From NCBI GenBank assembly GCA_963664995.2, contig OY761846.1, positions 1,775,771-1,807,770 on the forward strand: a DNA stretch of 32,000 bases, read 5' to 3'. Of the stretch, positions 6,001 through 20,340 are shown in pieces. The notes under the pieces are model-generated. The model saw only the letters and a program-made list of their open reading frames with translations. It ran no database searches and was not told the DNA's origin. Both the position numbers and the translations under genes were made by a program. This stretch comes from Dehalococcoidia bacterium. Its GTDB lineage: Bacteria; Chloroflexota; Dehalococcoidia; Lucifugimonadales; Lucifugimonadaceae. Every line of letters begins with the position of its first letter. Within the stretch, counting starts at the first letter, position 1.

Positions 6001-9000
6001 GAGCATTTCGAATAGCCTGCGGAAGAGGCGTGCATGCTCCTCGTTTATGCCTAATCGTTGTCTAAGGTCTTCGGGATTGACGACTTCACCGGTTTGACGT
6101 TTCCAACCAAGTTTTTCAAGCGTCCGCAGCGCGTAGGCCCTTGACCACCGCTCCATGTCGGCAAGAAGGCTGTTTCGACTTTCGGGATCAACATCCGCGT
6201 CGGATAGGTAACCAGCGAATAAAGACAACCCCTTGGCCACTTCGTTCGGACTTGGCAAGAAATCGGCGGGCAATGTGGCGTTTTCAAGTTCACGTTCTCG
6301 CCAAACTACCTCATATAGGAGATCGTCAGTGCCCTCAATTGCAGAAAGCAGAGCTGCCTTTGTTGCGCGCTTAACGGTGTATCCGATGAAACCGCCGATT
6401 TGAACACCGCTTGGATCGTAGATTCTTAGTTCTCCACTCAAAACCTCCGGTTGAACGTCTGGATCAGCATCCTGCTCAGACTGATTCATAATCACATGGC
6501 AAAACACTCGGTCTGGTAGGCGTCTGTTCAGCCAGAAACGTTCCCATCCGAAAGGAAGATAGGTGGCTTCACCGGGATCCCCGGTCATGTTGCGGGCTAT
6601 ACCGACGACTTGGAAACAACCGTCCATTATGAGCGGGTGAACATCGAGTTCGTTGCGTCCGAGGGTCTCGGGCAGTATCACTTCTGCCAATGCTTGACCG
6701 GGGCCTGACCATGCCATGCCTAGCGTCCGGAAGAAGGGACCGAGATCGATACCGGTGTCCACCTTCGCGCGATAGTAATCTTGCACGTCTGCGGGCGTGA
6801 GTTGTGCTGCTAGTGCTTCTAGATCGATTCGCCCCCCTCCCCGCGTCTCTGGAGCGGTCCCGCCTGATGAAACCTTGCACTCCACATGCAAGGTCCATTC
6901 ACTCTCATTTCCTTTGCTGTAAATCTGAACGTCATGAGATCCCGACTGCTCAGACGCGTTTAATGCGACTTGCATCGTCGCGCCCTGTTGGTCAGCATCA
7001 GAATCTGAATCAGTTTTGGAAAAAACCAACGGGTTGTGGAGCTGCATGTCATCAACGAAAGTGATGCTACTTCCGCCAACTTCCTCAAGTGTTGCCGAGG
7101 TAGCCATCGCTCCATACAGCGCGCCGGGTGCTACCAATCGGCCGAAGACGCGGTGATCAACCATCCAAACAGGGTCCGACGGGAAGACCTCAGTTTCGAA
7201 AGTGACCTCACCCCGTGCCGATTCGTGCCTAACGCCAAGCAAAGGATGACCAACTATTTGGCGTCTCGGCTTGTCTTGCCTCACCCAATGCCGCTCTCGC
7301 TGAAACGGGTAGCTGGGCACTGAGATGCGACGACGTTTCTCTCCTGCGAATAATCCGTCGAATCCGATGTCCAACCCGGATTGGTATCCTTCGACGACGG
7401 CATCAATGAAGCTTGTTTCAGGTTCTGAAGTCGAACGATCACGAGGCGGTCGTCGAAGGCTTGCAATCTCAGCAGGAGTTTCGGCCCCCGGCCATGCCAA
7501 CGTTGCCATTGGACCCAGTACCGCATGGGGACCGATCTCAATTATGAGGTCCACATCGAGGTCAGCCATTGCCTGAACTCCGCTGGCGAATGCCACCGCC
7601 TCGCGCGCGTGGCGCTTCCAATAGGTGCCGTCTAATGCCATATCGGAATCGACCTGTCGACCTGTCACGTTGCTGATCACGGTCAAATCAGGAGACCCGA
7701 TCTTCACGCTTTGCAAGAATGATTCCAACTCGCCCAAAGCGGGTTCGACCAGAGCACTATGAAATGCACGTTTCGTATTTAATCGGCGCGCTCGGGTACC
7801 CTTTGATTCATAAAAGTCGACGATTTTTTCAATGTCTGCGACGGTACCGCTAACGACCTGATGTGCGCCGTTATAGCCTGCGATGCTCAATCCGGGACCT
7901 TCGGTCTTAGCATTCAGTTCTTCAATCGTTGACGTTACATCTTGGGGAGTCGCGAATATCGCTGCCATCGTCCCGGGATCGGTATTGGACAGCAGCGTAC
8001 CCCTTACGGCGGCGAAGCGCATCCCGTCTTCAATACTGAACACACCGGCGGTTTGGGCGGCTGCGATCTCGCCCACGCTATGACCGAGCACTACACTAGG
8101 ACGGATTCCAACGCTTGCCCATAGAGCAGACAACGCTGACTGCAATGCATAGAGGGCCGGCTGCTCCCAAGCGGTATCTCCTAGGTCTTCCTTTGCACCG
8201 TTGCGTCCCCACATCACGTCGAGCAGAGATTCGCCCCGTTCGCGTTGAAAAACCATCTCGCAACGGTCCATGACGGCCTTCACCACTGGCTCACTCTCGT
8301 AGAGAGACTGCCCCATACCTACCCATTGGCTTCCCTGCCCGGTGTATAGGAACGCGACCTTGCTAGCCAATTGCGGCTCGATGCTTGTCTCATCTTGGGA
8401 TAGGGCATCCAGCTTCTCGCGCAATGATTCGGCATCTTCAAACGCGATACCGGATCGGCGATCGAATTGACTCCTCCCAACTCCAGCTGTCCACGCCATA
8501 TCCGACAACAACTCATGCGCGGTGTCACGATCATGAATTAACTCGTTGGAATGTTCGTCGAGCCACGAAACGTATCTTTTGGCAAGGTCCCGGACCGCGC
8601 CTTCAGACTTTCCTGACAGAGGCAAGAAACGCTTCTGGCGTCTGCTCGAAGGCTTTTCCGTCAGAACAAGATTGGTTAAATGCGTGGGCAATGAAACGCC
8701 GATAGATTGTATAGAACCAGAAGTACCGTTTTGGTAAGCCACCAATTCGCCCTGGTCGCGATGTTCCTGCAACACGACATGAGCATTGGTTCCGGAAATT
8801 CCGAACGAGTTGATCCCCGCCAACCGAGGACGACCATCGCAACTTGGCCACTCCATCATGTCGGTCGTTACCCGTATAGGGAGATTCTCCCAGTCGATGT
8901 TGGGGTCTGGATTATGGAAGTTCAGATGTTTGGGAATTACTCCCCGTTTCACAGCAAGGGCGGCTTTTATGAGCCCGGCAATTCCCGCGGCCGATTCCAG

Positions 9001-10128
9001 GTGTCCGATATTGGTCTTGACGGAACCGATCAACAATGGCGCGTCGGTATTTCGGCCTGGTCCGTAAACGTTTGAGACAGCGTCGATCTCAATGGGGTCT
9101 CCGACCGCTGTTCCGGTACCGTGAGCTTCTAGATAATCGACCTCGGATGCTGGAACACCCGCGTCTGCGTGTGCCGCTTGGATCAACTTCTCCATAGCTG
9201 GCGCGTGTGGCACAGTCAATCCGGCACTGGCACCGCCATGGTTGACCGCCGCACCTAGAATGACTGCCCATATCGGGTCGCCATCGGCTAGTGCCTCGTT
9301 CATTCGTTTGAGAACGACGACACCGCACCCTTCACCGCGTACGTAACCGTCGGCAGATGCATCGAAAGTCTTGCACTGCCCTTCTGGGGATAACATCATG
9401 GATTCGGCGCGAAGTTCATAGACACGCGGATTAAGGATTGCCTGAACACCGCCTGCAATTGCGAGGTCGGCCTTACCCTGTTGCAAGTCTGCGACAGCAT
9501 CATGTACAGCAACTAGCGCGGATGCACACGCAGCATCGACTGCCTTTGCCGGCCCATTGAGTCCGAGAACGAATGAGACGCGGCCGGCGGTTCCGTTCAG
9601 GTTGGTACCGCTGAGCGCGTAGAGGCTTCCGGCGGCTTCCGTAGGGCGAGTCGAATCGAGAACCAGCATCCGGTATTCATCGTTGCTGATACCGCTGTAA
9701 ACGCCGGTGCGACTACCCTTAAGCGTCTCAGGATCGATGCCGGCATCTTCGAGCGCCAACCAACTCATTTCCAGCATCATGCGTTGCTGGGGGTCTAGCA
9801 GATCAGCTTCCACTGGCGAAATTCGGAAGAACCCAGCGTCGAACAGGTCAATGTCATCTACAAATGCACCGTATCGACACGCGTCTTGTGGCACCTGCTG
9901 ATCACTGAAAATCTGACCCATGCGCCCCTCTCCGGGACCGGCGTCGCTCTCGGTGACGGCGTTCCTACCTTCTTTCAGCAAGTCCCAAAACGCTTCCAAA
10001 TCACCAGCACCAGGGAACCGACATGCCATGCCGACGATTGCTATCGGCTCGTGTGTCGAAGGCGCATTTCCGTCGGATGACGATTTGCTGGTCTGACCAT
10101 AGGAGAGGGTTGGAGATGTCTGAGTCAT
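1..10128 (-). CDS. Type I polyketide synthase: fully reducing, C-methylating module plus terminal KS and vestigial AT (KS-AT-DH-cMT-psiKR-ER-KR-ACP-KS-AT0)
   Basis: A 3375-aa ORF with ATG at 10128 and TGA on bases 1-3. Domains were placed by hand-counted motifs (aa / approx nt). KS1 27-452 / 8773-10050: VDAAC201AS, EAH336GTGT, NIGH376. AT1 591-890 / 7459-8358: GQGSQW, GHS684VG, RAFHS787-791, malonyl-type. Post-AT linker YPFQRERHW. DH 960-1250 / 6379-7251: H992RVFGRLVAP, LGPFF, D1169GCFQ. cMT 1410-1625 / 5254-5901: LEIGAGTGS, SNVLHAT. ER 1895-2212 / 3493-4446: HAGAGGVGLAA. KR 2225-2405 / 2914-3456: TGGLGGIG, K2335, S2358. ACP 2500-2575 / 2404-2631: LGMDS2535L. KS2 2613-3030 / 1039-2292: C2778, H2913, H2953. 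AT remnant 3170-3375 / 4-621. Confidence 0.95.
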   Translation of the reverse strand: MTQTSPTLSYGQTSKSSSDGNAPSTHEPIAIVGMACRFPGAGDLEAFWDLLKEGRNAVTESDAGPGEGRMGQIFSDQQVPQDACRYGAFVDDIDLFDAGFFRISPVEADLLDPQQRMMLEMSWLALEDAGIDPETLKGSRTGVYSGISNDEYRMLVLDSTRPTEAAGSLYALSGTNLNGTAGRVSFVLGLNGPAKAVDAACASALVAVHDAVADLQQGKADLAIAGGVQAILNPRVYELRAESMMLSPEGQCKTFDASADGYVRGEGCGVVVLKRMNEALADGDPIWAVILGAAVNHGGASAGLTVPHAPAMEKLIQAAHADAGVPASEVDYLEAHGTGTAVGDPIEIDAVSNVYGPGRNTDAPLLIGSVKTNIGHLESAAGIAGLIKAALAVKRGVIPKHLNFHNPDPNIDWENLPIRVTTDMMEWPSCDGRPRLAGINSFGISGTNAHVVLQEHRDQGELVAYQNGTSGSIQSIGVSLPTHLTNLVLTEKPSSRRQKRFLPLSGKSEGAVRDLAKRYVSWLDEHSNELIHDRDTAHELLSDMAWTAGVGRSQFDRRSGIAFEDAESLREKLDALSQDETSIEPQLASKVAFLYTGQGSQWVGMGQSLYESEPVVKAVMDRCEMVFQRERGESLLDVMWGRNGAKEDLGDTAWEQPALYALQSALSALWASVGIRPSVVLGHSVGEIAAAQTAGVFSIEDGMRFAAVRGTLLSNTDPGTMAAIFATPQDVTSTIEELNAKTEGPGLSIAGYNGAHQVVSGTVADIEKIVDFYESKGTRARRLNTKRAFHSALVEPALGELESFLQSVKIGSPDLTVISNVTGRQVDSDMALDGTYWKRHAREAVAFASGVQAMADLDVDLIIEIGPHAVLGPMATLAWPGAETPAEIASLRRPPRDRSTSEPETSFIDAVVEGYQSGLDIGFDGLFAGEKRRRISVPSYPFQRERHWVRQDKPRRQIVGHPLLGVRHESARGEVTFETEVFPSDPVWMVDHRVFGRLVAPGALYGAMATSATLEEVGGSSITFVDDMQLHNPLVFSKTDSDSDADQQGATMQVALNASEQSGSHDVQIYSKGNESEWTLHVECKVSSGGTAPETRGGGRIDLEALAAQLTPADVQDYYRAKVDTGIDLGPFFRTLGMAWSGPGQALAEVILPETLGRNELDVHPLIMDGCFQVVGIARNMTGDPGEATYLPFGWERFWLNRRLPDRVFCHVIMNQSEQDADPDVQPEVLSGELRIYDPSGVQIGGFIGYTVKRATKAALLSAIEGTDDLLYEVVWRERELENATLPADFLPSPNEVAKGLSLFAGYLSDADVDPESRNSLLADMERWSRAYALRTLEKLGWKRQTGEVVNPEDLRQRLGINEEHARLFRRLFEMLANSGVMEERGDDFVVALGEDDALPVELRDDPEEFHVRMAEKYSHGLTEIGLFRRSGGALADVLRGEADPLTLLFSSGEPTAADLYLKAPVARAANRMLGDAVAKLVSELPDDRRLRVLEIGAGTGSATASVLPELPEGRFEYIYTDISAGFFAEAEARFGDANGSIQYRPLDIEEDPIAQGFASHGYDILIASNVLHATRYLEETLGHCLTLLAPDGHLIALENLRGLGWMDLTFGQLDGWWRFADEYRPHHALAGPDVWRQALSDTGFEAFEVLGVDDSFTHEMLDKGVIVAQGPAKVTEPAGAWILTADDGDVGQQLAEALAERNQTVILARNEVTENSRTIASNSNVTTTVVDFASRESWRSLIEDLPQDVPVNGVVHLLALDGHGPGASTDEIAQDLKNIGQTALTLVQGIADSDVTPAKGVWFLTEGGQVLERENSGELSGSILWGLGKVMALEASHFQPRMIDLDPNGSGTLTKLVDELMFPDQENHIAYRSGRRMGARLVRPDAAVERLTFPDHNNWVLAPDPDGVFDRPSIKQLPHPSLEPSEVLVAVEATGLNFWDVFRSLGFIEEGNLGRELCGHVLEIGSEVSKVAVGDRVVGLGFGAFGPQMITHQELVAPAPEGISASALATIPSAFVSAELSYRYSGLEPGDRVLIHAGAGGVGLAAIQLAQAAGAEVFATASAPKRQYLKSLGVKHLFDSRTTDFGQQILEATGGEGIDVVLNSLTSEGFIDASLSCLAHGGRFVELARRDILTEEEMADIRPDVSYDILELDVLKKTDPERVGEVLRDIMERIAKQELKPLIHSRWPMAEAGAALSFMRSARHVGKIVLTPQPLSTGRLRHDRTYLVTGGLGGIGIAVAEWLAEHGAGTIILNGRRDPDPEAEDAIAAMRRRGVKIEVELADMTDTSAIDDMLERMDAKFPPLAGVIHSVGVLSDAALTNQTWESFERVLWPKIIGAWHLHRATLNQDLDMFVLFSSRVGVMGNPGQSNHAAANAFLDQLAAHRRSLGLPGQAIAWGAWSEIGEAAEQRERIENRRAALGGRWFTPEQGMKAFEQITCRDNTTSVVMSTDWSVFEAAVEEPPSLVEELLSSTRDEDADTAKSSEDVLSKIRSASDSEREDLMVSFLQEELQAVMRLQTAPSPTTGFFDLGMDSLMAVEFRNRLNRAFAGQYVASNTIVFDYPSVADLAHHLSDEIGDVEEQKQVFAIPASVVAEQEVPELAAPSDSETDIDGVAIVGMACRFPKAKDIGEFWHLLKSGSDAITDGRRDNGSWSGTIGDPYAEQEVLRKGAFVDEIDSFDSRFFRISPIEARTMDPQQRMMLETTWHALEDAGIDPDGLKGSRTGVYVGVGASEYRDVLAANGIQDNYLGTTSSMAVGRVTFALGLEGPAVPVDLVCAASHAAVHQAVRSLETEEVDMALAGGVNAVLSPPISEYMTDLGMLSSSGESRPFDAGADGFVRGEGCGMLVLKRLRDAQADGDRIWGVILGSAVNQNGASAGLTVPNGSAQQNVMRDALNAAGVEPSDVDYYEAHGGASQLGDPIELHAAGAVYGEGRAQDHPLYVGSVKANVGHTEKAAGVASIIKVVLSMKNGVVPKQLNFSEPNSHVDWDRLAIEIPTKNTEWPNSNGREPLAAISGFGMSGANAHIVLSGYDVGADDRYASNGYIAPAGLKRSISGTSLDVEADLTESENGYVPRQSRLLPLSGKSEPALRDLAKEYLGWLEARPSDDHVVTDELLSDMTWTASVGRSHFGHRRGVVFRDIDSLRDGLSVISHIDADPETPEPAAAGKVAFVYADEIGYKPKVIRELYESEPAFRSVIDRCDEILGTEQGVRLLEVMLGRAGLDAIATDIELVRQATYAFQCALTALWTNVGVTPNVVLARGIGELAAAEAAGEVSLEDGLRIAERGGQSTQDGLVKIVESLSEESEYLLIGIGESSEYDLNPAVEGGVSFVDGLARAYEAGVPISFEGLFAGESRRRIAIPIYPFQRRRHWA

Positions 10129-10370
10129 TGGGTTCGTAACTCTCTAGCCTTGGACACTGTGCTAAACGCTAGATTCTGATCTAATCCAGCCGCCTTATCA
10201 AGCACGTACTGATATTGGAAATGGTAACTAAAAGTTCCCGATACTGCGTATCATACCCTTACCATTACTACTGCGTCAAACGAGATGGTCTTGGTGGCGG
10301 AATCGGTTCATGGATACGGCTCTCTTTTTGGATTGCATCGTAATTTCCCCGCAAGATTGTTGCTTAGCGT

Positions 10371-10376
10371 TATAAT
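10371..10376 (+). promoter_or_regulatory. Candidate -10 box (perfect TATAAT) in the divergent PKS / RdhA-like intergenic region
   Basis: TATAAT lies 38 nt upstream of the ATG at 10414. I found no convincing TTGACA-like -35 at 16-18 bp spacing, so this is weak. Confidence 0.2.
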
Positions 10377-10413
10377 CCGCTTCAATACTTGCGCGCAAGT
10401 CAAGGATATCGAG

Positions 10414-11661
10414 ATGAGTAAGTCAGTACACCACGTCGTAACTCGCCCCGGACGGAGGCATGGCGACGCTGAAACGTCAATACCGGTCGCCGAAGATTTG
10501 GTGACGGTGCCAGGGTCTCCAACAATCGATGGTGATGTTAGCTATTACAGCCGAGAATATCCCGTCGAAAGCCAGACCGTTGAGAAGTCGGCAGATCGCG
10601 AATGGGGTTGGACAGTCTACATTAAAGAGGTTTACGACTACCGCAAGAAGCATGACGAGGTGAGTGAACCTCTGATCGAGGCGGCCGCGGTATCTGGCGA
10701 TCATGACCCCACGACAGAGCCGGAAGCGGGGCGAGATGTCACGGAAGAGGTCCGCACAAAGGCTCGCGAGTTGGGTTTCGGCGAGGTTGGATTCACAAGG
10801 TATGACCGACGTTACACCTATCAGAGCAAAAAGCCGTGGGCGAAGTTCAACCACGCGATCTGCTTGGCGTTGGAGCAGGACTACTACCAGACCCAGACCA
10901 TCCCTAGCCTTGAGGCAGAATTCGCACACTTCGGCACCTACGAGATCGCCGGTGAACTCGCCCTCAAACTCGCCGAACACATCCGGTCCCTCGGATACCA
11001 CGCACAAGTCCACAGCCCGAACGACAACAGCGGCGTGTTTATTCCGCTTTTCGTGAACGCGGGATTGGGGCAGCTAGGGGCTAATGGTCAACTACTATCG
11101 CCTCATTTCGGGTCGCGGGCTCGCCTGATGATGGTCACCACCGATGCGCCAGTTACATACGACGAACCGGTTGATTACGGCATCAACAAGTTTTGCGAAC
11201 AGTGTCAGGTTTGTGTCGTGCGTTGCCCTGCCAGAGCATTGCTTCGTGAAAAGGTTTGGTACCGTGGCGTGCAGAAGAACAAGCTTGTATATGACCGATG
11301 CCGCCCGATAATGGTCACTTACGAGGGATGTGCGGTATGCATGAAGGTTTGCCCCATTCAGCGTTACGGGATGAAGCCGGTGATGGAGCATTACATCGAG
11401 ACTGGTGACATCTTAGGCAAAGGCACGCCGAACCTCGAAGGATACGAGCTTCGCGACAAGGGTTACTTCGGTCCGGGGGAGCTGCCTCACTTTGACCGTG
11501 AGACTTTTGAGTTTCCACATGGCACTAAAGAGGAGTGGTTGTTCGAGAAGTTCAAGGAAAAGCTAGAGGACAACGGTGCACCAGAGGCTGAGGAAGCTGT
11601 GGAGTTTGCAGATGAGTTGACGCGTCTAGTGAAGGCTGGCGTGTCGCGGACGGACGAGTAG
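10414..11661 (+). CDS. Reductive dehalogenase / epoxyqueuosine reductase (RdhA/QueG) superfamily Fe-S protein, cytoplasmic type
   Basis: The C-terminal half has the superfamily pattern AGLGQLGANGQLLSPHFGSRARLMMVTTDAPVTYDEPVDYGINKFC. This is followed by two ferredoxin-type motifs, CEQCQVCVVRCP (CxxCxxCxxxCP) and CRPIMVTYEGCAVCMKVCP (Cx9CxxCxxxCP). The upstream segment ELGFGEVGFTRYD...AICLALEQDY...IRSLGYHAQ also fits. There is no hydrophobic Tat/Sec leader. I moved the start from the ORF-track 10285 to ATG 10414, which has AAGGA about 10 nt upstream. Confidence 0.65.
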   Translation: MSKSVHHVVTRPGRRHGDAETSIPVAEDLVTVPGSPTIDGDVSYYSREYPVESQTVEKSADREWGWTVYIKEVYDYRKKHDEVSEPLIEAAAVSGDHDPTTEPEAGRDVTEEVRTKARELGFGEVGFTRYDRRYTYQSKKPWAKFNHAICLALEQDYYQTQTIPSLEAEFAHFGTYEIAGELALKLAEHIRSLGYHAQVHSPNDNSGVFIPLFVNAGLGQLGANGQLLSPHFGSRARLMMVTTDAPVTYDEPVDYGINKFCEQCQVCVVRCPARALLREKVWYRGVQKNKLVYDRCRPIMVTYEGCAVCMKVCPIQRYGMKPVMEHYIETGDILGKGTPNLEGYELRDKGYFGPGELPHFDRETFEFPHGTKEEWLFEKFKEKLEDNGAPEAEEAVEFADELTRLVKAGVSRTDE

Positions 11662-11712: not shown

Positions 11713-11901
11713 ATGTTTGAGAAGGCTGCACTGGATGCTCTGTTTGGCGAGTTAGAGGTTAGCTACGGCGGTTCTGGAGATTACGGCCAGCTCTTGCGCG
11801 ATGCACATCTCGGCATCGCACTGTCTGACGCTGGGAAGGATTTGGGATCGGAACTCGACTCTAGGGTTGTGGATCTGATCGAAAAGCACAGAGTTGGGTA
11901 G
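11713..11901 (+). CDS. Small acidic hypothetical protein (62 aa)
   Basis: The ORF lies 52 nt after the RdhA-like stop, with GAAGG about 8 nt upstream of its ATG. I recognised no motif, so it may not be a real gene. Confidence 0.3.
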   Translation: MFEKAALDALFGELEVSYGGSGDYGQLLRDAHLGIALSDAGKDLGSELDSRVVDLIEKHRVG

Positions 11902-12126
11902 ATTACGATATTTGATGATTCGTTGTTGGCTTATAGATGCCCCGGTCAGCGTGCCTCGATCCAGCCCCCTGCCACGAACTCGGAGCGCACTCGTGCCTCA
12001 TTGACCTGCCAGTGTCCGACAATGGTTTGCAACGGGCGCGGTCGGATGGTTACGCCTAGACATTAGATTTGAGTTCTGCTATGGTGTTTGCAATCACTCG
12101 GCGGCAAGCCAATCTCGGAGGATAGG

Positions 12127-13158
12127 ATGTCGGTCAAGCTCTCTGGTCTTTTGAAAGACGCGCAACAGAATGCCGATGTTGCTGACACTCTTAGCAAGTA
12201 CGAGAATGGCTTCGAGAAATCCAAATTCGGGAAGATTGGGGGAGATGATGAAACGAGCGAGTTCAAGGATGTCAACAACCACTACTATGACTTGGTTACG
12301 GATTTCTACGAATTTGGCTGGGGAAGGTCATTTCATTTTGCCCCACGCGTACCTGGCGAGAGTTTCGCTGCATCGCTAGCTCGCCATGAACACTACATCG
12401 CGCACATGCTCGGCCTGGGTCCAGGGATGGTGGCGGCTGACTTAGGTAGCGGTGTTGGCGGGCCTATGGTGGAGATAGCTCGCTTTTCCGGTGCTCGGAT
12501 CGTGGGAATAAACAGCAACGAGTACCAGATCGAGCGTGCTCGAAAACTCAGCGAAGGGGCAGGGCTGTCTCATCTGACTAATTTCTTGCACTGCGACTTC
12601 CATAATGTGGATGCTCCGGACGACTCGTTTGACGCGGCATTCTCGATCGAGGCGACGTGCTGTTCGTCGGACAAAGCCAGAATATACAGCGAGGTCTATC
12701 GCCTTCTTAAACCGGGCGCTTGTTTTGCTGGTTACGAATACTGCTTGACGGATCGGTACGACGCGAGTGATCCTTACCATGTGAAGATCAAGTCCGACAT
12801 CGAGCTAGGTGGTGGTCTGCCCGATATCGCCTATAGTCACGAAATTGACGAGATTCTTAGAAGCGTGGGCTTTGAGGTATTGGAAACGCGAGACCTAGCG
12901 GAACAATCGGGTCCGTCGGTGCCTTGGTATTTGCCATTGGCCGGATCAGGACTATCATTTGCGAGCTTCCGCAGCTCATCGGTCGGGCGGTTGGTCACGC
13001 AGAGCTCATTGCGAGTGCTAGAAACACTGCGGATAGTGCCTCGAGGAACGGTGCGCGTTTCGAAAACGTTGAATCTTGGCGCGGATGCGATGGTCGAGTC
13101 GGGCCGGCTGGGCATCTTTTCGCCGATGTACTTCGTCCACGTCCGCAAACCGCTGTAA
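12127..13158 (+). CDS. Sterol 24-C-methyltransferase (ERG6/SMT) family SAM-dependent olefin C-methyltransferase homologue
   Basis: It is collinear with the SMT signature regions as I recall them from yeast ERG6 and plant SMTs. YYDLVTDFYEFGWGRSFHF matches region I (YEYGWGSSFHF). ADLGSGVGGP is the SAM motif. SIEATCCSS matches IEATCHAP. RLLKPGACFAGYEY..TDRYD, IELGGGLP and PWYLPL also align. The C-terminal GIFSPMYFVHVRKP matches the Sterol_MT_C ending. The start is set at ATG 12127, with GGAGGA 5 nt upstream; the ORF-track TTG at 12088 is less likely. Confidence 0.85.
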   Translation: MSVKLSGLLKDAQQNADVADTLSKYENGFEKSKFGKIGGDDETSEFKDVNNHYYDLVTDFYEFGWGRSFHFAPRVPGESFAASLARHEHYIAHMLGLGPGMVAADLGSGVGGPMVEIARFSGARIVGINSNEYQIERARKLSEGAGLSHLTNFLHCDFHNVDAPDDSFDAAFSIEATCCSSDKARIYSEVYRLLKPGACFAGYEYCLTDRYDASDPYHVKIKSDIELGGGLPDIAYSHEIDEILRSVGFEVLETRDLAEQSGPSVPWYLPLAGSGLSFASFRSSSVGRLVTQSSLRVLETLRIVPRGTVRVSKTLNLGADAMVESGRLGIFSPMYFVHVRKPL

Positions 13159-13196
13159 CGCAGCCGATGACGGCGTTACATATCTGCGGGTTGAAA

Positions 13197-13271
13197 TGGT
13201 GGAGCTGACGGGATTCGAACCCGTGACTTCCTGCTTGCAAAGCAGGCGCTCTCCCACTGAGCTACAGCCCC
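13197..13271 (-). tRNA. tRNA-Ala (anticodon UGC), CCA encoded
   Basis: The reverse complement folds by hand into a cloverleaf. It reads GGGGCTG TA GCTC AGTGGGA GAGC G CCTGC TTTGCAA GCAGG AAGTC ACGGG TTCGAAT CCCGT CAGCTCC A CCA. It has the G3:U70 alanine identity pair and TGC centred in a 7-nt anticodon loop. Confidence 0.95.
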
Positions 13272-13325
13272 ATAGTTTGAGTCTATAATCGCTTAAAAGA
13301 CCACTGATTCGAGAAAGCTCACTAC

Positions 13326-14765
13326 ATGAAAACAACGCAACACGACCTCCAGATGACACCGGATCAGATGCTGGATCTCGCACACATGGCGGCGGAGCTT
13401 CTGGTGGAACGCGTAGAGAATATGTCGGAAGGAGACGCTTGGGACGGTGAGTTCCGCGAGGGGCTAGAGGACTTGCTGATGGAGGACCCGCCTGAGGCAG
13501 GTCGACCTGCGAAAGAAGTCCTGGACCGAGTATCTCGCGAGATTCTGCCCTACGCTGCACGGCTCGATCACCCTCGATTCTTTGGATTCATCCCATCTTC
13601 ACCCACCTGGCCAGGCGTAATCGCCGATTTCATAACTGCCGGGTTCAACATCAATGCGGTTACTTGGCTTACTGCAAGTGGACCGAGTCAAGTTGAGTTG
13701 GTCGTCACCGAATGGTTCCGGCGCTGGATCGGCTATCCAGAAAGTGCCGGAGGGCTATTCACAAGCGGGGGGTCAGTTGCCTGCATCGATGCCTTCGTCG
13801 CGGCGCGCGAGGCAGCCGGCAACCCAGAGCGCGCTACGGTCTACATGAGCGACCAGAGTCACATTGCGCTGAACCGAGCCGCAATGATCATAGGTGTTCG
13901 ACCCGAGTGCGTCCGCGTGATCCCGAGCGACGAGAACTTTCGCTTAGACATGGCAGCCCTTGAGCGCACCATGACCGACGACCGCGCCGCGGGCTTTAAT
14001 CCCATGATCGTGAATGCAAATGCAGGAACAGGCGTAACTGGTGCCATTGATCCACTTCAAGCCATGGCCGATTACTGCGAGTCGGAAGATATATGGCTAC
14101 ACGTAGACGGGGCGTATGGTGGATTCGCAGTCGCGACCGAGAAGGGAAAAAGGTTGTTGCAAGGAATCGAACGCGCCGATTCTGTAGGGCTCGACGCACA
14201 CAAATGGTTCTTCCAACCCTACGAAGCCGGTTGCCTGATGGTCAAAGACGCCGACACCCTCGAGAAGCCATTCGGGATTAGACCAGACATTCTCCAAGAC
14301 ACAATATGGGGCGCAAACCACCCGAACTTCGGTGATCGGGGACTCCAGATCAGCCGCTCATTCAGGGCGTTGAAGGTCTGGATGTCCGTCCAAACCTTTG
14401 GCATGGCCGCGTTCCGTCGCGCCATTTCGAACGGAATGGAACTGGCACTCCAGGCACAGGAATATGTCCAAGCCAGTCAGGTTCTCGAAATGATGAGCCC
14501 CACATCGCTGGGAATCGTGTGCTTCAGGGTGAATCCCGAGGACACCAAGCTCGACGAGCAAGTTCTGGAGAAGATAAACAGGATAGTGCTCGCTCGCGTC
14601 TTCTGGGAAGAGCCGGCACTCTTCTCGTCGGCGCTTACTAAGGGGACATTCTCTCTCAGAATCTGCATCCTCAACCACACGACGGCTTGGGAAGATGTGC
14701 GCGACACCCTAGAAGCCATTGAACGATTCGGCAGGGAGGCGCTAGCTACAGAGGCTAACGCTTGA
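13326..14765 (+). CDS. Group II pyridoxal-phosphate-dependent decarboxylase (aromatic-L-amino-acid / tyrosine decarboxylase-like)
   Basis: HPRFFGFIPSSPTWPGVIADFITAGFN is the family N-terminal signature. SGGSVACIDAF also fits. DAHKWFFQPYEAGCLMV contains the PLP-lysine DxHKW motif. Size is 479 aa. Confidence 0.85.
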   Translation: MKTTQHDLQMTPDQMLDLAHMAAELLVERVENMSEGDAWDGEFREGLEDLLMEDPPEAGRPAKEVLDRVSREILPYAARLDHPRFFGFIPSSPTWPGVIADFITAGFNINAVTWLTASGPSQVELVVTEWFRRWIGYPESAGGLFTSGGSVACIDAFVAAREAAGNPERATVYMSDQSHIALNRAAMIIGVRPECVRVIPSDENFRLDMAALERTMTDDRAAGFNPMIVNANAGTGVTGAIDPLQAMADYCESEDIWLHVDGAYGGFAVATEKGKRLLQGIERADSVGLDAHKWFFQPYEAGCLMVKDADTLEKPFGIRPDILQDTIWGANHPNFGDRGLQISRSFRALKVWMSVQTFGMAAFRRAISNGMELALQAQEYVQASQVLEMMSPTSLGIVCFRVNPEDTKLDEQVLEKINRIVLARVFWEEPALFSSALTKGTFSLRICILNHTTAWEDVRDTLEAIERFGREALATEANA

Positions 14766-14774
14766 ATTGCCGCG

Positions 14775-15092
14775 CTACTGATCTCTCTCAACGTCGAGGT
14801 TCGAGCATATCCTAGCGATCGTCTTGGCCTGCGCGAGGTCTGGCGCATGGTTTTCGGACACGCCAGCGAACCCGGAGAGCATCGAGGCTGCATCGCCATG
14901 CAATCTAGCTACGACGACTGGCTGACCCAAGATAACTTGCCAAATAAGGGCAGCTGCAGTGTCGTCAAGCTATACGGTCTTGCTCAAATCCAATATGACA
15001 ACTTCATTAGCCGCTCTATCACTCCGCAAGACCCTCGCAATTTCGCGGGCTGATGCCACGGATATCGTATCGGGCAATATAACGAGTCCCAC
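14775..15092 (-). pseudogene. STAS-domain (anti-sigma-factor-antagonist-like) gene remnant with in-frame TAG
   Basis: Hand translation of the minus strand from GTG at 15092 gives VGLVILPDTISVASAREIARVLRSDRAANEVVILDLSKTV. A TAG follows at 14970-14972. The frame continues as LDDTAAALIWQVILGQPVVVARLHGDAASMLSGFAGVSENHAPDLAQAKTIARICSNLDVERDQ and ends at TAG 14775-14777. The pattern vv.LDLs.v.f.D..a...l...g..vv.a.l......l...G matches SpoIIAA/STAS topology. The stop falls where the conserved hydrophobic residue before the D(S/D) position would be. A further stop lies just upstream at 15099-15101 and there is no ATG. Confidence 0.3.
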
Positions 15093-15137
15093 TCGTGACT
15101 AGTAGAGGGCCTTGCAAAGCTCATACGAGAGTAAGGG

Positions 15138-15165
15138 TTGTAAATTGCGCGATTTTCGGTATCAT
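15138..15165 (+). promoter_or_regulatory. Candidate sigma70-type promoter for the lipoprotein array (TTGTAA-16 nt-TATCAT)
   Basis: The hexamers lie at 15138-15143 and 15160-15165, 20-30 nt upstream of the L1 start candidates. This is a pattern match only. Confidence 0.2.
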
Positions 15166-15185
15166 TCACAGAGATTGAGGGCAGT

Positions 15186-15791
15186 TTGCTATCGATGCTT
15201 GCAGCGTTCCATAAAAAGCTCGGATTCCTCGCGACGATAATGATGGTCGTCGCTTTTTGCGTTGCGTGGGTGTCGTTGGCGTGCGGCAGTGCTGACGGGG
15301 GCGATGGTAATGACTCGGAGTTGGAGTTTCAGCAAGTGATGGATATCGGGACAACTTTTTCGCCTGACCATCTCGATGGCATCGGTTTCAAGAAATCTCG
15401 TAGCTATGATCTCGAAGGATTGCCCGGAGCCAGCGAAGCAATATTCGGTTTCTGGCGCATCGCTTCAGGAGACCCGATCGATTACGAGGTGCGTTTCTAT
15501 GCTAGTCACTCAGACGCGGTGGAGTTGGGAACTGAACTTGCAGAAGAAGGATCGGGTGCTGATGCCGTTCTCGACGCGGATGATGCGAAATACAAAGAAG
15601 GTGTCAAAGACCGTCGGATGATCGTGGGATCCGGCATCGGCGGCGGGGCGCGTAGCGGCACGGGGCCGCGATATGGTTCGTATGCGATCTACGGCAATGT
15701 GGTAATGCTCTGCGGAGGTGCCGCTGGCGAGCAGGCACTTGATCGGTGCGAAGAGCTTGCGAATGCTTTGAAAGGAACCGAGGGCGAGTGA
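15186..15791 (+). CDS. Lipoprotein, unrecognised tandem-paralogue family, member L1 (2-Cys type)
   Basis: Signal peptide ending VSLAC|GSADGG, followed by an acidic G/D/S tether. Family core: YEVRFYASH, AEEGSGADAVLDADDAKYKEGVKDRR, YGSYAIYGNVVMLC-x11-C. The start is ambiguous: TTG 15186 has GAGGG 4 nt upstream, and ATG 15195 is the alternative. Confidence 0.8.
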   Translation: MLSMLAAFHKKLGFLATIMMVVAFCVAWVSLACGSADGGDGNDSELEFQQVMDIGTTFSPDHLDGIGFKKSRSYDLEGLPGASEAIFGFWRIASGDPIDYEVRFYASHSDAVELGTELAEEGSGADAVLDADDAKYKEGVKDRRMIVGSGIGGGARSGTGPRYGSYAIYGNVVMLCGGAAGEQALDRCEELANALKGTEGE

Positions 15792-16342
15792 TGGGCAAGG
15801 TGAGTTGGATGATTTTCGTATGTCTGCTAGGCATCGTCATTGTCGGTTGCGGTGGCACAACTAACGACGCCTCCGAAGATTCTGAGGATTCGAGACAAGA
15901 TGCAGAATCCCGAGTTTTAGACAGAGAGCAGATTATATCGTCCGATGACCTAGTCTCTCTGGGAATGAAATCGGGTAAGACTTACGATGTCTCGACACTG
16001 CAGGGCGGAGTCGAAGCCGGGTTGCTTTATTGGCGAGTCAACGATGTCGCGGTGGAGTACGAAGCGCGGTTCTATGCTTCGCATGATGATGCGGTAGCAC
16101 TCGGCACTGCGCCAGCGGAAGAAGGAAGCGGAGAAGACGCGATCATCGATGAGGATGTGGCGGTATATAAGGAAGGGATCCGAGACCGCAGGAAGGTTTT
16201 CAAATATCCAAATTCAGTGCTGAAACCAAAATACGGCGCGTACGCGATCTACGGAAACATGGTCGTTCTATGTGAGGGAAAAGACGATGCAGAGGGGTGG
16301 AGTAGATGTTCAGCGCTGACCGACGCTCTCGATAATCGATAA
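15791..16342 (+). CDS. Lipoprotein, same family, member L2 (2-Cys type)
   Basis: ATG 15791 overlaps the L1 TGA by 1 nt (TGATG). Signal peptide MGKVSWMIFVCLLGIVIVGC|GG. Core: YEARFYASH, AEEGSGEDAIIDEDVAVYKEGIRDRR, YGAYAIYGNMVVLCEG-x-C. The ORF-track start 15746 lies inside L1 and is rejected. Confidence 0.85.
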   Translation: MGKVSWMIFVCLLGIVIVGCGGTTNDASEDSEDSRQDAESRVLDREQIISSDDLVSLGMKSGKTYDVSTLQGGVEAGLLYWRVNDVAVEYEARFYASHDDAVALGTAPAEEGSGEDAIIDEDVAVYKEGIRDRRKVFKYPNSVLKPKYGAYAIYGNMVVLCEGKDDAEGWSRCSALTDALDNR

Positions 16343-16360
16343 AGGTCGGAACACGTCGGC

Positions 16361-16927
16361 ATGAAATTGATCGGAGTATTCAAAGGTCTCATTGCGCTTT
16401 CATTGCTTTTCATCGTGTTGGCGATGGCTTGCGGATCAAACGATGGAGGCGGAGGCGGTGCTGGTGTCTCAGACTATTCAGAGGTTGAGTCCGATACTAG
16501 GATATTCGACCGTGAGGCTACGCTCTCAGTTGACGATCTGCTCTCTCTCGGCTTGAAATCTGGCAAGAAGTACGACGTTGAAGACCTTCCCGGAGCCGTC
16601 GCCAACCGCGTCTTCTTCTGGCGTATAGACGATATCTCCGTCCAATACGAAGCCCGGTTCTACGAATCCCACGCCGCCGCAATAGAATTCGGACCTGGCC
16701 TTGCTGAAGAAGGCAGCGGTGAAGGCGCGATCCTCGACGCCGATGATGCGGTATACAAAGAAGGCGTCAGAGACCGCCGAACAGTGTTCGACTTCCGGGG
16801 TACGCCAAGACCGAGATACGGAACCTATGCCATCTACGCAAACATGGTCGTACTCTGCGAAGGCCGCGACGATGCCGAAGCTTGGGACCGTTGCACCGCG
16901 TTAATTGAAGCGCTCGACAATCGATGA
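16361..16927 (+). CDS. Lipoprotein, same family, member L3 (2-Cys type)
   Basis: Signal peptide MKLIGVFKGLIALSLLFIVLAMAC|GS, followed by a poly-Gly/acidic tether. The core is roughly 60 percent identical to L2 by eye: YEARFYESH, AEEGSGEGAILDADDAVYKEGVRDRR, YGTYAIYANMVVLCEG. Confidence 0.85.
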   Translation: MKLIGVFKGLIALSLLFIVLAMACGSNDGGGGGAGVSDYSEVESDTRIFDREATLSVDDLLSLGLKSGKKYDVEDLPGAVANRVFFWRIDDISVQYEARFYESHAAAIEFGPGLAEEGSGEGAILDADDAVYKEGVRDRRTVFDFRGTPRPRYGTYAIYANMVVLCEGRDDAEAWDRCTALIEALDNR

Positions 16928-17478
16928 AGCCAGCAGTTGCTTTAATTCTCTTGCTCGCAATCGCCGTGATGTTGCTCGCGTGCGGCAGTCAACCAGTTGC
17001 AGAAGAGTTAGCCGAACCCGAGGACGTAGGCCCGCAAACACAACTCATTAGACCAACAGATCGGACGTTTGGAATCGTAGACTTCGAAACCGCTGGACTA
17101 AAGCACTCTAAGAACTACAAGACTGAGGGATTGCCGGGCGCAACCAGAGTTTCGCTTTTCTTTTGGAAGGTCGATGGGACGCCAGTGCAGTACGAGGTGC
17201 GTTTCTATGCCTCACATGGTGAAGCTGTAGGATCAGGTTTGTCGTATGCGAAAGAAGGTGCGGGGCCAGATGCGATCATCGACCCGGATTTCGCCCGCTA
17301 CACGGAAGGGCTGCGTGATCGTCGTACTATTGTGCACACTCGCGGATCGCCGACACCTCGCTACGGTGATTTTGTAATCTATGGCAACATGATTGCGCTA
17401 TGTGAGGGGCGTGATTCGATGCAAGGATCAGAACGATGTGGGCGTTTGGTCAAGGCTTTGGATACGGCCAATCATTGA
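16924..17478 (+). CDS. Lipoprotein, same family, member L4 (2-Cys type)
   Basis: Its start overlaps the L3 stop in an ATGA. Signal peptide MKPAVALILLLAIAVMLLAC|GS. Core: YEVRFYASH, AKEGAGPDAIIDPDFARYTEGLRDRR, YGDFVIYGNMIALCEG. Confidence 0.85.
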   Translation: MKPAVALILLLAIAVMLLACGSQPVAEELAEPEDVGPQTQLIRPTDRTFGIVDFETAGLKHSKNYKTEGLPGATRVSLFFWKVDGTPVQYEVRFYASHGEAVGSGLSYAKEGAGPDAIIDPDFARYTEGLRDRRTIVHTRGSPTPRYGDFVIYGNMIALCEGRDSMQGSERCGRLVKALDTANH

Positions 17479-17626
17479 GGATGGAGACATTCCGAGTTTT
17501 AACCAGCATCCTCCCGCTTTTCTGTTTGACGAATTGAGTAACATATTTAATCAGTACCCCCAGAAGCGTCGAAGCGCCGCGATGGTTGTGTCACGGCGGC
17601 AACTCAAGTCCAAGGAGAAGGAAGAG

Positions 17627-18265
17627 ATGATACTGCGAAGATTTTCATGGCTCGGACTCCGCACGTTTGGGCTGGCAGTGTTGGTATCAACTCTGGCATT
17701 CGCTTTCGCGTGCGGCAGTGCGGACACAGATGAAGGTGATAGCGACAGCGGCGCTGGAGGCGCGCCGGCAGCAGCGGTGGAAGAAGCACCTAGTGGCCCG
17801 CCAGGCGTAGAGATAGTCTCGACGGACGCGATGTACACAGTTGACGATCTGGTCAACACCCCGAACTTCAAGAAGAGCAAGGAGTATAAGACCGAGGGGC
17901 TCGATGAAGCGACGGCGGCGATTTACGGATTTTTCGGACCTGATCCGTACGACCGTCAAGAGTTCGAGGCTCGGTTCTATCCCGATTACGACACCGCAAT
18001 TACCGTGGGAGTAGATTTCGCTGACGAAGCGACCGGACCAGATGCGGTCATAGCGAAAGATATCCAACGCTGGGACGAAGGATTGGTCCAGCGACGTGCT
18101 TGCTCAGGCAACACCCGCGGCTCGCACCACTCTGGCAAGTGCGACAACGCGAAATACGGCGACTACGTTGTGGCGGGCAATCTCGTGCTGCTTTGCCAAG
18201 GTAAAGATTCTGAAACTTCGCTTGCTAACTGCAATGATTTGATGGACGCGCTTCAATCGCAATAG
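17627..18265 (+). CDS. Lipoprotein, same family, member L5 (4-Cys type)
   Basis: The start is set at ATG 17627, behind AAGGAGAAGGAAGAG. Signal peptide MILRRFSWLGLRTFGLAVLVSTLAFAFAC|GS. Core: FEARFYPDY, ADEATGPDAVIAKDIQRWDEG. It carries an extra Cys pair, RRAC-x12-C, then YGDYVVAGNLVLLC-x11-C. The ORF-track start 17393 overlaps L4 and is rejected. Confidence 0.8.
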   Translation: MILRRFSWLGLRTFGLAVLVSTLAFAFACGSADTDEGDSDSGAGGAPAAAVEEAPSGPPGVEIVSTDAMYTVDDLVNTPNFKKSKEYKTEGLDEATAAIYGFFGPDPYDRQEFEARFYPDYDTAITVGVDFADEATGPDAVIAKDIQRWDEGLVQRRACSGNTRGSHHSGKCDNAKYGDYVVAGNLVLLCQGKDSETSLANCNDLMDALQSQ

Positions 18266-18293
18266 TGGTCGGTGTCAACCGCTGAAAACGGCG

Positions 18294-18953
18294 ATGTCTG
18301 TATACCAAGGATTGCTGGTCGCGTGTTTGGCTGCCTCCTTTAGCGCAATGGCGCTTGCATGCGGCAATGCTGATGAGGACAGCGGTTTGGACCTAGGAGA
18401 CTACGAGATTGTTGGGCGTACGCCTTTGGTCGCGCCAACTGCAACGGTGACACCAGCATCGGTCGCAAAGTCAGTTGATGTCGCAATTGAACGCAAAGTC
18501 CATATACGCTCGGCAGATGATCGTTTATCAATGATTGATTTTGAAACGCTCAAGAACTTCAAGCTGAGCAAAGAGTACGACGTTGAAGGATTGAGTAATG
18601 CAGACGCAGCGATATATGGTTTTTTCGGTCCTGATCCCTATGAGCGTCAGGAGTTCGAGATTCGTTTCTACCCGGATCACGCAACGGCTTTGGATGATGG
18701 CGTAGATTTTGCCAACGAGGCCACGGGGCCTGAGGCTGTAATTGCGAGTTCGGTTCAGCGATGGGATGTAGGCTTGAGCCAACGGCGAGCATGTGCGGGT
18801 AACACTCGCGGCTCGCATCATTCCGGAAGGTGCGACATAGCGAAATACGGTGATTACATGATCGTCGGCAATACCGTGCTACTATGCCAAGGTAAGGATT
18901 CGGAAAGTGCTCTGCATAACTGCGACGCGCTGTACGCCGCTCTGCTTCAATAG
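18294..18953 (+). CDS. Lipoprotein, same family, member L6 (4-Cys type)
   Basis: Signal peptide MSVYQGLLVACLAASFSAMALAC|GN. The n-region has no basic residue, which is slightly atypical. The core is close to L5: FEIRFYPDH, RRACAGNTRGSHHSGRC, YGDYMIVGNTVLLCQG. Confidence 0.8.
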   Translation: MSVYQGLLVACLAASFSAMALACGNADEDSGLDLGDYEIVGRTPLVAPTATVTPASVAKSVDVAIERKVHIRSADDRLSMIDFETLKNFKLSKEYDVEGLSNADAAIYGFFGPDPYERQEFEIRFYPDHATALDDGVDFANEATGPEAVIASSVQRWDVGLSQRRACAGNTRGSHHSGRCDIAKYGDYMIVGNTVLLCQGKDSESALHNCDALYAALLQ

Positions 18954-18979
18954 CGAGATTCAATCAGTTAGAGGTAACA

Positions 18980-19564
18980 ATGTCCGACACAAGCAATAGC
19001 AAGCTGGCCTACTCACTTGTGATTCTGATGGCATTGTTGGCATCAGCGTTGATTCTCGCAACAGGCATCGCGTGCGGCAGTTCCACGGGAGACGGCTCCA
19101 ATGGAGAAGCACCAGCCGAAGGTGGAGCAGATCCGAGGATACGCAACACGGAGGGGATGTACACCATAGACGACCTAAAGGCAGCGGGCGTTAAGGCGAA
19201 CAAGGATTATGATGTCGAAGATTTGCCGGGAGCGGATGCGGCTTGGAGGATCATCTTTAACCGTCTCGACTACGAGGTTCGTTTTTACCCTGATCACCAG
19301 ACGCTTTTGGATGAGGGTATACCGTATGTCGAGCACGTAACTGGGGACGATGCGGTGGTGATCGGCGATGACGTTATCTGGGAAGAAGGCGCGAAGGATC
19401 GTCGTCGTTGCAGCCGAGACGCTGATACTCCCCACTCAGGATGCTCTTATTCGCCGCGCTACTGGGATTATGTCGTGGTGGGCAACATGATCATGATGTG
19501 TGAGGGACTTGAAAGCAAGCAGTCGATCGAGAACTGCGACAATTTGCTCGCTGAGTTGGAGTGA
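18980..19564 (+). CDS. Lipoprotein, same family, member L7 (4-Cys type, divergent)
   Basis: AGAGG lies upstream of the ATG. The signal peptide ends LATGIAC|GSS. Core: YEVRFYPDH, TGDDAVVIGDDVIWEEGAKDRRRC-x10-C, YWDYVVVGNMIMMC-x11-C. Its stop is 5 nt from the convergent yhhQ-like stop. Confidence 0.8.
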   Translation: MSDTSNSKLAYSLVILMALLASALILATGIACGSSTGDGSNGEAPAEGGADPRIRNTEGMYTIDDLKAAGVKANKDYDVEDLPGADAAWRIIFNRLDYEVRFYPDHQTLLDEGIPYVEHVTGDDAVVIGDDVIWEEGAKDRRRCSRDADTPHSGCSYSPRYWDYVVVGNMIMMCEGLESKQSIENCDNLLAELE

Positions 19565-19569
19565 CGAAG

Positions 19570-20340
19570 TTAGCGTCGGGCAGTCCATCGGGCAGACCAA
19601 AAACGGGCAGCGTTGGCATCCGTCTCGTAGGATTTTCCGAAGATCCCTAGGGGGTTCAAATCTCTTGGATCGTCGAAAATGTCGATCTGCTCGCGCCATT
19701 TGAGATTGTTGACGATCAGGTATACCAAGGGTGTAGCGGCTATTTCGTAGAGAGTTTTGACTATCCATCCGAGAATTGCGCCGTTGATTGCGGCCTCCCA
19801 TCCCCAGAGTCCTGAAAGCCCGAACGCGATACCGTAGAAGAGGAACGAGTTTACGCCCTGTGCGACAAACGTGGACGAGATTGTCCGCAACCACAGCATC
19901 CTGCCGTTAGTTCGGTTCTTCAACGTCACCATAACGATGGCGTTGGAGAACTCCCCAATCGGATATGACAATAAACTGGCTCCAGCAATCCACGGTGTCG
20001 CACCTAAGATCGCTTCGTATGCAGACTGGTGACCCCAGAAATCAGCACCGGGCAATGCACCGACCAAAAAGATGAAGACGGTGAGCATAAAACTGCACGC
20101 CAATCCGAGCCAGATAGCACCGCGGGCGACCCGGAATCCATACACCTCCGTCAAGATATCGGAGATTATGAACGTGATCGGGAAACAAATAACCGATGCC
20201 GAAACGACGACGAGGTTGCTGCCCAAAAACTCGAACGGCAACTCGAGCAGCGTGACTGGCTTCCCCGAGATTGTGTTTGAAATTATGTATGCCGCGACCG
20301 AGAACGCGATGATGACTACCATTGGCCCGGAAAATCTCAA
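19570..20340 (-). CDS. yhhQ: YhhQ / VUT (DUF165) family transporter, queuosine-precursor-transporter-like
   Basis: A polytopic membrane protein with family motifs FIISDILTEVYGFRVARGAIW and WLRTISSTFVAQGVNSFLFYGIAF. The TTG start at 20340 has AGAGGGA 8-9 nt upstream. The alternative ATG at 20322 has no SD. Confidence 0.75.
   Translation of the reverse strand: MRFSGPMVVIIAFSVAAYIISNTISGKPVTLLELPFEFLGSNLVVVSASVICFPITFIISDILTEVYGFRVARGAIWLGLACSFMLTVFIFLVGALPGADFWGHQSAYEAILGATPWIAGASLLSYPIGEFSNAIVMVTLKNRTNGRMLWLRTISSTFVAQGVNSFLFYGIAFGLSGLWGWEAAINGAILGWIVKTLYEIAATPLVYLIVNNLKWREQIDIFDDPRDLNPLGIFGKSYETDANAARFWSARWTARR

Follow-up and report, generated by a model that had tools for sequence, protein, structure and literature searches.

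Sterol methyltransferases (SMTs) of sponge symbionts and other uncultured bacteria make 24-methyl, 24-ethyl, and 24-isopropyl sterols (PMC10070321; bioRxiv 10.64898/2025.12.19.695621). In the study of Brown et al. 2023 (Nat Commun), 24 metagenomic SMTs were tested and most of them alkylated desmosterol (PMC10070321); two SMTs of Aplysina aerophoba symbionts and one Chlamydiae SMT made 24-isopropyl sterols (PMC10070321). The propylating Chlamydiae enzyme is encoded in a metagenome-assembled genome (MAG) that has no other sterol genes, and its authors proposed the modification of host sterols (PMC10070321). In MAGs of sponge (Ircinia) symbionts, including Dehalococcoidia, SMT genes were also reported at scattered sites outside the sterol operon (Kelly et al., 2022, PMC9531527); the same study found ERG24-CYP51-LSS operons in about 20% of the MAGs of sponge symbionts, among them Dehalococcoidia and a Chloroflexota MAG from Aplysina (PMC9531527). 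Here, we describe an SMT gene located in a stretch of 32,000 nucleotides of a Dehalococcoidia bacterium (assembly GCA_963664995.2, contig OY761846.1, positions 1,775,771 to 1,807,770), the whole of which is referred to below as the window. We infer its activity, substrate, and sterol source, and consider it likely that the gene encodes a functional-looking S-adenosylmethionine (SAM)-dependent sterol C-24 methyltransferase of a clade that circulates among sponge-associated bacteria, carried as a stand-alone variable cassette and unrelated to the polyketide synthase (PKS) gene nearby.

Family membership and characterized relatives

The SMT coding sequence, delimited by its open reading frame (ORF), Pfam matches, and homologs, occupies positions 12127..13158 of the + strand and comprises 343 codons and a stop. 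The enclosing ORF (12088..13158, +) offers an alternative TTG start at 12088; however, the real start is read as the ATG at 12127, because the homologs begin with MxVKLSxxLKD and a Shine-Dalgarno sequence, GGAGG (12117..12121, +), is seen 5 nt upstream. The C-terminal domain Sterol_MT_C (PF08498) covers residues 278–342 (12958..13152, +) and profile positions 1–65 of 66, with a score of 80.7 bits against a gathering cut-off of 21.7. The class I domains Methyltransf_11/25/31 all scored above the Pfam cut-offs, Methyltransf_11 spanning residues 105–199, and the protein passed no NCBIfam model.

Alignment to ERG6 located the functional regions of the enzyme, all on the + strand. The sterol-binding Region I, YEFGWGRSFHF (12307..12339), the motif being defined as in bioRxiv 10.64898/2025.12.19.695621, corresponds to ERG6 positions 81–91 and contains Y81, F83, G84, W85, G86, F89, H90, and F91. 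It is followed by the SAM-binding Region II, DLGSGVGGP (12439..12465; residues 105–113, ERG6 125–133), by Region III, IEATC (12646..12660), which includes E175 (ERG6 E195), and by the codon of G229 (12811..12813), which corresponds to ERG6 G249 and stands in the context GGGLPDIA. The motifs GYEYC and PMYFVHVRKP are also present in the translation. The numbering follows what we take to be the yeast ERG6 sequence, with which the window protein shares about 40–41% identity, and it fits every residue named in the preprint that defines the regions. Brown and Welander 2025 listed 25 residues common to functional SMTs, among which H90, D125, G129, P133, and E195 are essential in yeast (bioRxiv 10.64898/2025.12.19.695621); all 25 of them are present in the window SMT.

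The searches of sequence databases gave a consistent picture. At E ≤ 1e-30, 393 clusters matched the window SMT in a search of 1.84 billion representatives, which puts the match far beyond chance. The nearest cluster representative (61% identical) stands for Acidimicrobiia MAGs and “Candidatus Poriferisocius.” A larger protein database yielded 1779 homologs at E ≤ 1e-10; the best 120 of these were all bacterial, 341 amino acids long, and 64–70% identical, and the named ones among them came from Chloroflexi/Chloroflexota or Bryobacterales MAGs under the annotation “sterol 24-C-methyltransferase family protein.” Among genome representatives, matches were obtained in Dehalococcoidia MAGs (63–70%), a Thermodesulfobacteriota MAG (58%), and Chlamydiae MAGs (44–48%). 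The named cluster representatives also include eukaryotic proteins, among them an SMT from a chytrid (49%) and a cycloartenol-C-24-methyltransferase-1-like protein from rice (48%). The best matches outside the family, MitM, RebM, and TleD, reached only about 72 bits and 17–24% identity. The PDB holds no solved canonical SMT with a Sterol_MT_C domain; the entry 6f5z (“24-sterol C-methyltransferase,” 231 amino acids) matched the window SMT weakly (34 bits), and the folds nearest to its AlphaFold model were those of generic relatives such as TleD, RebM, SpnF, a GPP C-methyltransferase, and a CFA-synthase-like enzyme.

A neighbor-joining tree of 84 sequences was built without an outgroup and with 100 bootstraps; the support of the clades was computed without the truncated sequence P0261, which wandered within the clade. 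The window SMT formed one clade with SMTs of Chloroflexota and Acidimicrobiia, with related SMTs, and with SMT1 of the related locus L003 (100/100 bootstraps). Within it, a subclade supported by 85/100 bootstraps united the window SMT with those of Chloroflexota and Acidimicrobiia and with sequences related to them, and its closest relatives, at 61–70% identity, came from Chloroflexota, Acidimicrobiia, and Bryobacterales MAGs and from sponge metagenomes. SMT1 of L003 sits in a bacterial sterol cluster together with a second SMT, a Rieske/KshA_C protein (SdmA-like), a 3-beta-hydroxysteroid dehydrogenase (SdmB-like), a CYP51-like P450, and an MMPL transporter with a sterol-sensing domain (SSD). 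More distant bacterial SMTs were also found among sterol genes: L018 combines a squalene epoxidase-squalene synthase (SE-SQS), HMG-CoA reductase (HMGR), and oxidosqualene cyclase (OSC) with two SMTs, L019 has an SMT beside an OSC, and L030 carries a canonical SMT-SdmA-SMT-SdmB-ERG24-CYP51-SE/OSC-MMPL cluster.

Thus, the sequence-only reading of this DNA, which had proposed a eukaryote-type sterol C-24 methyltransferase collinear with ERG6 and the plant SMTs and well beyond generic class I similarity, agrees with the domain score, the complete set of conserved residues and quoted motifs, the full-length identity of about 40–49% to eukaryotic SMTs, the 53–55% identity to a characterized bacterial SMT, and the low scores of the best non-SMT matches. 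The protein belongs inside the SMT family; the placement that this reading had named as its refutation, among tocopherol, phosphoethanolamine (PEAMT), or CFA-synthase methyltransferases, was not observed. On the grounds of its sequence, the window gene is an intact eukaryote-type sterol C-24 methyltransferase.

The closest characterized bacterial SMT is that of Aplysina aerophoba meta JGIcombinedJ30088_10000835 1 of 2. The sequences of this propylating enzyme and of the Chlamydiae one were taken from codon-optimized DNA in the supplement of the 2025 preprint, which was damaged by optical character recognition; a frameshift-tolerant aligner was therefore used, since plain tblastn underestimated the identity. 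The window SMT was about 55% identical to the Aplysina symbiont SMT (159/289, frameshift-tolerant; 52.9% with MAFFT), and it shares with that enzyme the domain architecture, the length class, the 25 conserved residues, G249, a Region I Phe, the identical GGGLPDIA sequence around G249, and relatives in sponge metagenomes. However, the gene of the Aplysina SMT is part of a complete set of clustered sterol genes (SE-OSC, CYP51, ERG24, and SdmA/B), whereas the window SMT is a lone gene beside a tRNA. The window SMT also falls into a subclade of its own, which is tighter (Chloroflexota, Acidimicrobiia, and Bryobacterales) and whose members were matched to no tested enzyme; none of the at least 14 loci listed from a metagenome scan is a contig with a biochemically tested SMT. 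The SMT of the Chlamydiae drinking-water MAG resembles the window SMT in being an orphan without sterol synthesis genes (in the whole MAG for Chlamydiae, in the region for the window) and in having the same residues Y81, F83, and G249. It is only about 48% (135/279, frameshift-tolerant) or 47.3% (MAFFT) identical, comes from another phylum, and belongs to an obligate intracellular bacterium, whereas an extracellular sponge symbiont is presumed here. With the eukaryotic ERG6, SMT1, and SMT2, the window SMT shares full-length collinearity, Regions I–IV, and the C-terminal domain; in contrast to them, it branches with bacterial sequences, has a bacterial gene context (tRNA, ABC transporters, and PKS), and carries G249 in place of the Asp of yeast ERG6.

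Predicted activity, sterol source, and habitat

The published signature of propylating SMTs is a Gly at ERG6 position 249 together with a Phe at 81 and/or 83, which is necessary but not sufficient (bioRxiv 10.64898/2025.12.19.695621). In the window SMT, G229 corresponds to G249 and F63 to F83, and position 81 is a Tyr. Glycine at 249 is near-universal in the clade (97 of 100 resolvable members), and the pair at 81/83 varies (YY in 39 members, FY in 37, YF in 23, and FF in 14). Among 10 further sponge-metagenome SMTs, nine of them with Gly249 and one with a gap at that position, one made C30 sterols and six were inactive (bioRxiv 10.64898/2025.12.19.695621). The window SMT is thus a candidate for sequential methylation, no more. 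By analogy with the SMT family, SAM would bind at the DxGxGxxGP Rossmann site, with Region I (Y81/F83) on one side of the sterol side chain and Gly249 on the other. Addition of the methyl cation at the double bond, delta-24(25) or delta-24(28), would leave a carbocation at C-25/C-24, to be quenched by deprotonation, and the pocket formed by F83 and G249 may permit a second and a third methylation (24-ethyl and 24-isopropyl).

Several observations weigh against the assignment of such an activity. Neither desmosterol nor 24-methylenecholesterol was methylated by 11 of the bacterial SMTs that had been assayed earlier, and four of these 11 kept the conserved residues (preprint bioRxiv 10.64898/2025.12.19.695621). 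The AlphaFold model of the window SMT is of moderate quality (predicted local distance difference test, pLDDT, 73) and poor across Region I. A tblastn search of the 32-kb window with 13 bacterial sterol-pathway proteins from related loci (OSC, SE-OSC, SE-SQS, HMGR, CYP51, ERG24, SdmA, SdmB, amine oxidase, and MMPL/SSD transporter) gave no match at E ≤ 1e-3, and no gene of sterol synthesis, demethylation, or transport was found within ±10 kb of the SMT in eight distinct contexts of the clade. Pfam scans of all large window ORFs likewise revealed no sterol-pathway genes. These searches bear out the remark of the sequence-only reading that the 32 kb contain no sterol genes. Since scattered SMTs are known (PMC9531527), this absence is uninformative.

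The best-supported of the two readings offered earlier is that of a bacterial SMT acting on sterols, although it is not the surprise that had been assumed, as bacterial SMTs were already published (2022–2025). The sterols may come from the host or another exogenous source, or they may be self-made by an operon located elsewhere; we regard the two sources as almost evenly balanced, with a slight lean toward host or exogenous sterols because the SMT gene travels alone between phyla and strains. The SMT1/ERG6 genes of Kelly et al. 2022 (PMC9531527) are similar in this respect: SMTs were enriched in sponge-symbiont MAGs of many phyla, often lay off the ERG24-CYP51-LSS operon, and showed evidence of horizontal gene transfer. 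However, that study was made at the annotation level only, and the tRNA-adjacent presence/absence polymorphism seen here was not described there.

Several gene fusions were noticed in bacterial sterol clusters of the related loci. L003 encodes, inside its sterol cluster, a 677-amino acid fusion of GPP34 (Golgi phosphoprotein 3-like) and cytochrome P450 (17348-19381), and a GPP34 gene is also present at the end of L032. A squalene epoxidase-OSC fusion of 1129 amino acids, a type very common among the matches, was found in L030 (10001-13390). The squalene epoxidase-squalene synthase of L018 (661-3876) is a fusion of 1071 amino acids, and L031 (4492-8766) encodes an HMG-CoA reductase-polyprenyl synthase-squalene synthase fusion of 1424 amino acids.

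The homologs of the window genes indicate that the SMT-bearing bacterium is probably sponge-associated. An SMT homolog of 68–69% identity lies on the JGI contig PetF_10021770; in the supplement of Brown et al. (PMC10070321), PetF denotes the metagenome of the sponge Petrosia ficiformis. The loci Ga0209754 and Ga0209544 from the metagenome scan share their metagenome identifiers with Aplysina aerophoba samples of the preprint. In addition, the closest named relatives of the PKS came from Chloroflexi/Chloroflexota MAGs (67–70%), others being from Dadabacteria, Bryobacterales, Gemmatimonadetes, and further taxa; such a spread is typical of the “sup” PKS family of sponge symbionts (PMC4245539, PMC3908369). 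In two Dehalococcoidia MAGs (L004, 11545-19107; L001, 11490-19109), the genes after the SMT encode very large proteins with cadherin/fibronectin-III repeats, which are eukaryote-like and typical of sponge symbionts.

Strain-variable cassette and alternative explanations

Comparison of the window with L032, a locus on a circular contig of 2,595,913 bp from a close relative whose PKS gene is 86% identical in nucleotides, demonstrated that the SMT is a single-gene, strain-variable accessory cassette of about 1.4 kb at a tRNA-adjacent hot spot. The order of the PKS, a reductive-dehalogenase (RDH)-like gene, tRNA-Ala, an array of DUF6810 genes, and Vut_1 is the same in both, with 89–90% amino acid identity for the PKS and 94% for the RDH-like protein. 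However, blastn homology stops at 11834 and resumes at 13197, and the segment carrying the SMT in the window (11835..13196) is filled in L032 by MacB/FtsX and ABC ATPase genes. The conserved anchor beside the SMT is a tRNA-Ala(TGC) gene (13197..13271, −), which was identified with ARAGORN in the window and L032 (97% identity over 97 nt). A search for direct or inverted repeats at the borders of the SMT cassette gave nothing convincing. No SMT of 71–89% identity was present among the matches listed, and these data suggest that the L032 genome is without an SMT ortholog; the L032 assembly contains frameshifted genes. The SMT is a stand-alone gene that carries a ribosome-binding site of its own; the genome is Chloroflexota-like and measures about 2.7 Mb, and the identical SMT protein was matched on a contig of 2,683,615 bp. 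A consensus scan also revealed a promoter-like site, TAGACA-17-TATGGT with TG (12057..12085, +; 9 of 12 matches), which weakly points to a possible SMT promoter.

The sequence-only reading had also offered the idea that the SMT fold was recruited to tailor a fatty acid or the adjacent PKS product, with methylation of an isolated olefin giving mid-chain methyl branches. The SMT does lie 2 kb from a 3375-amino acid PKS, sup-type PKSs may, according to one proposal, synthesize methyl-branched fatty acids (PMC4245539), and the nearest solved folds include olefin C-methyltransferases (TleD and GPP C-methyltransferase) and a CFA-synthase-like enzyme. However, the adjacency is not conserved: no PKS was found within ±10 kb of the SMT in eight of eight distinct relative contexts (L001/L004, L002, L007/L008, L009, L010/L011, L012/L014, L013, and L015, L002 being judged by the lack of a large PKS-sized ORF), and the neighbors differed each time. 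Conversely, the PKS homologs of L032 (89–90% amino acid identity) and L033 (70%) have no SMT nearby, and L032, which is syntenic for the PKS, RDH-like gene, tRNA-Ala, and DUF6810 array, has MacB/ABC genes at the position of the SMT. The RDH-like gene separates the PKS and SMT genes, which are divergent, a C-methyltransferase domain is already built into the PKS itself, and the window SMT keeps all sterol-binding residues. Because the SMT is a strain-variable cassette that is replaced in the syntenic L032, its nearness to the PKS is incidental, and the tailoring idea, which these data contradict, is hardly credible.

An SMT-family enzyme with another substrate or regiochemistry, acting on a linear or non-sterol triterpenoid, on the sterol nucleus (C-4), or at side-chain C-26, is another proposition. 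The family is known to include variants such as the SMT-like Botryococcus TMTs and the nematode C-4 SMT (4-SMT; PMC6997595). The former are squalene/botryococcene methyltransferases (Niehaus et al., 2012, as cited in PMC3533583). Several SMTs from sponge metagenomes combined intact motifs with a lack of activity toward both sterols assayed (bioRxiv 10.64898/2025.12.19.695621), no enzyme is known for 26-methyl sterol synthesis (PMC10070321), and the window SMT gene travels without sterol genes. Nevertheless, we consider such an activity unlikely, as the window protein has all 25 residues common to the C-24-active SMTs, groups with a sterol-cluster SMT in 100/100 neighbor-joining bootstraps, and shares 53–55% identity with a proven C-24 enzyme. 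The gene could also be an inactive or decaying, horizontally acquired passenger without a current function: its cassette varies between strains and is missing from this site in a close relative, and in vitro assays found about one third of bacterial SMTs to be inactive. This appears quite improbable in view of the intact frame of 343 amino acids, the strong Shine-Dalgarno sequence, and the retention of all functionally conserved residues. In addition, sponge-associated bacteria of several phyla maintain the SMT at 61–70% identity, and its catalytic columns are invariant, which argues for purifying selection. The activity of a sterol C-24 methyltransferase thus remains the preferred explanation.

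The remaining genes of the window were assigned as follows. The type I PKS (1-10128, −; 3375 amino acids, complete) has the domain order KS-AT-DH-cMT-ER-KR-ACP and a C-terminal KS-AT pair, which is degenerate (HGTGT is changed to HGGAS, and the AT motif GHSxG to GIGEL) and probably non-catalytic. The RDH/QueG-like Fe-S protein gene (10285-11661, +) that separates the PKS (−) from the SMT (+) scored 112 bits with TIGR02486, below the cut-off of 160. Beyond tRNA-Ala, a second variable segment (13294..15325) has no counterpart in L032 and includes a gene of a PLP (pyridoxal phosphate)-dependent decarboxylase (13326-14765), similar to diaminobutyrate decarboxylase. It is followed by seven tandem DUF6810 paralogs (15186-19564, +), an array also present in L032, and by two partial-domain DUF6810 copies on the opposite strand (20486-21543, −); the queuosine-precursor transporter gene Vut_1 (19570-20340) lies between the two DUF6810 groups. 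In the L032 region 4736-5199, tRNA-Ala is flanked on both sides by genes that are strain-variable in the comparison. The PKS of L032 is followed by genes of an acyl carrier protein (ACP), a phosphopantetheinyl transferase (PPTase), an alpha/beta-hydrolase, and a permease, an arrangement that resembles the “sup” cluster of sponge symbionts. The PKS orthologs are split into several ORFs in L032 (9331-19574) and L033 (10001-22022), the gene of L033 being interrupted by a DDE transposase; the splitting could reflect real decay or frameshift errors of long reads.

Implications for sterol biomarkers

Bacterial SMTs of the same kind are already published (Kelly et al., 2022; Brown et al., 2023; Brown and Welander, 2025), as are their activity and biomarker implications, and the locus opens no new question. 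The new element is a small one: in this lineage, the SMT is shown to be an accessory cassette next to a tRNA gene. The behavior of this single-gene cassette fits the spread of near-identical SMTs across phyla among sponge symbionts.

The C28–C30 side-chain-alkylated steranes, especially 24-isopropylcholestane, serve as biomarkers of eukaryotes and sponges in Neoproterozoic rocks, and each further bacterial lineage with a competent SMT weakens the exclusivity of these biomarkers. The locus described here adds one SMT with the sequence features of a propylation candidate, from a Chloroflexota-like bacterium that is probably sponge-associated. We also put forward, as a tentative idea that we do not expect to hold, that a horizontally mobile, stand-alone SMT may let a sponge-associated, Chloroflexota-like bacterium that is unable to make sterols alkylate those of its host, the Y81/F83/G249 pocket possibly taking the products to 24-isopropyl (C30) side chains. 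If this were true, part of the “sponge” 24-isopropylcholestane signal would represent host sterols modified by symbionts, and not the work of sponge enzymes.

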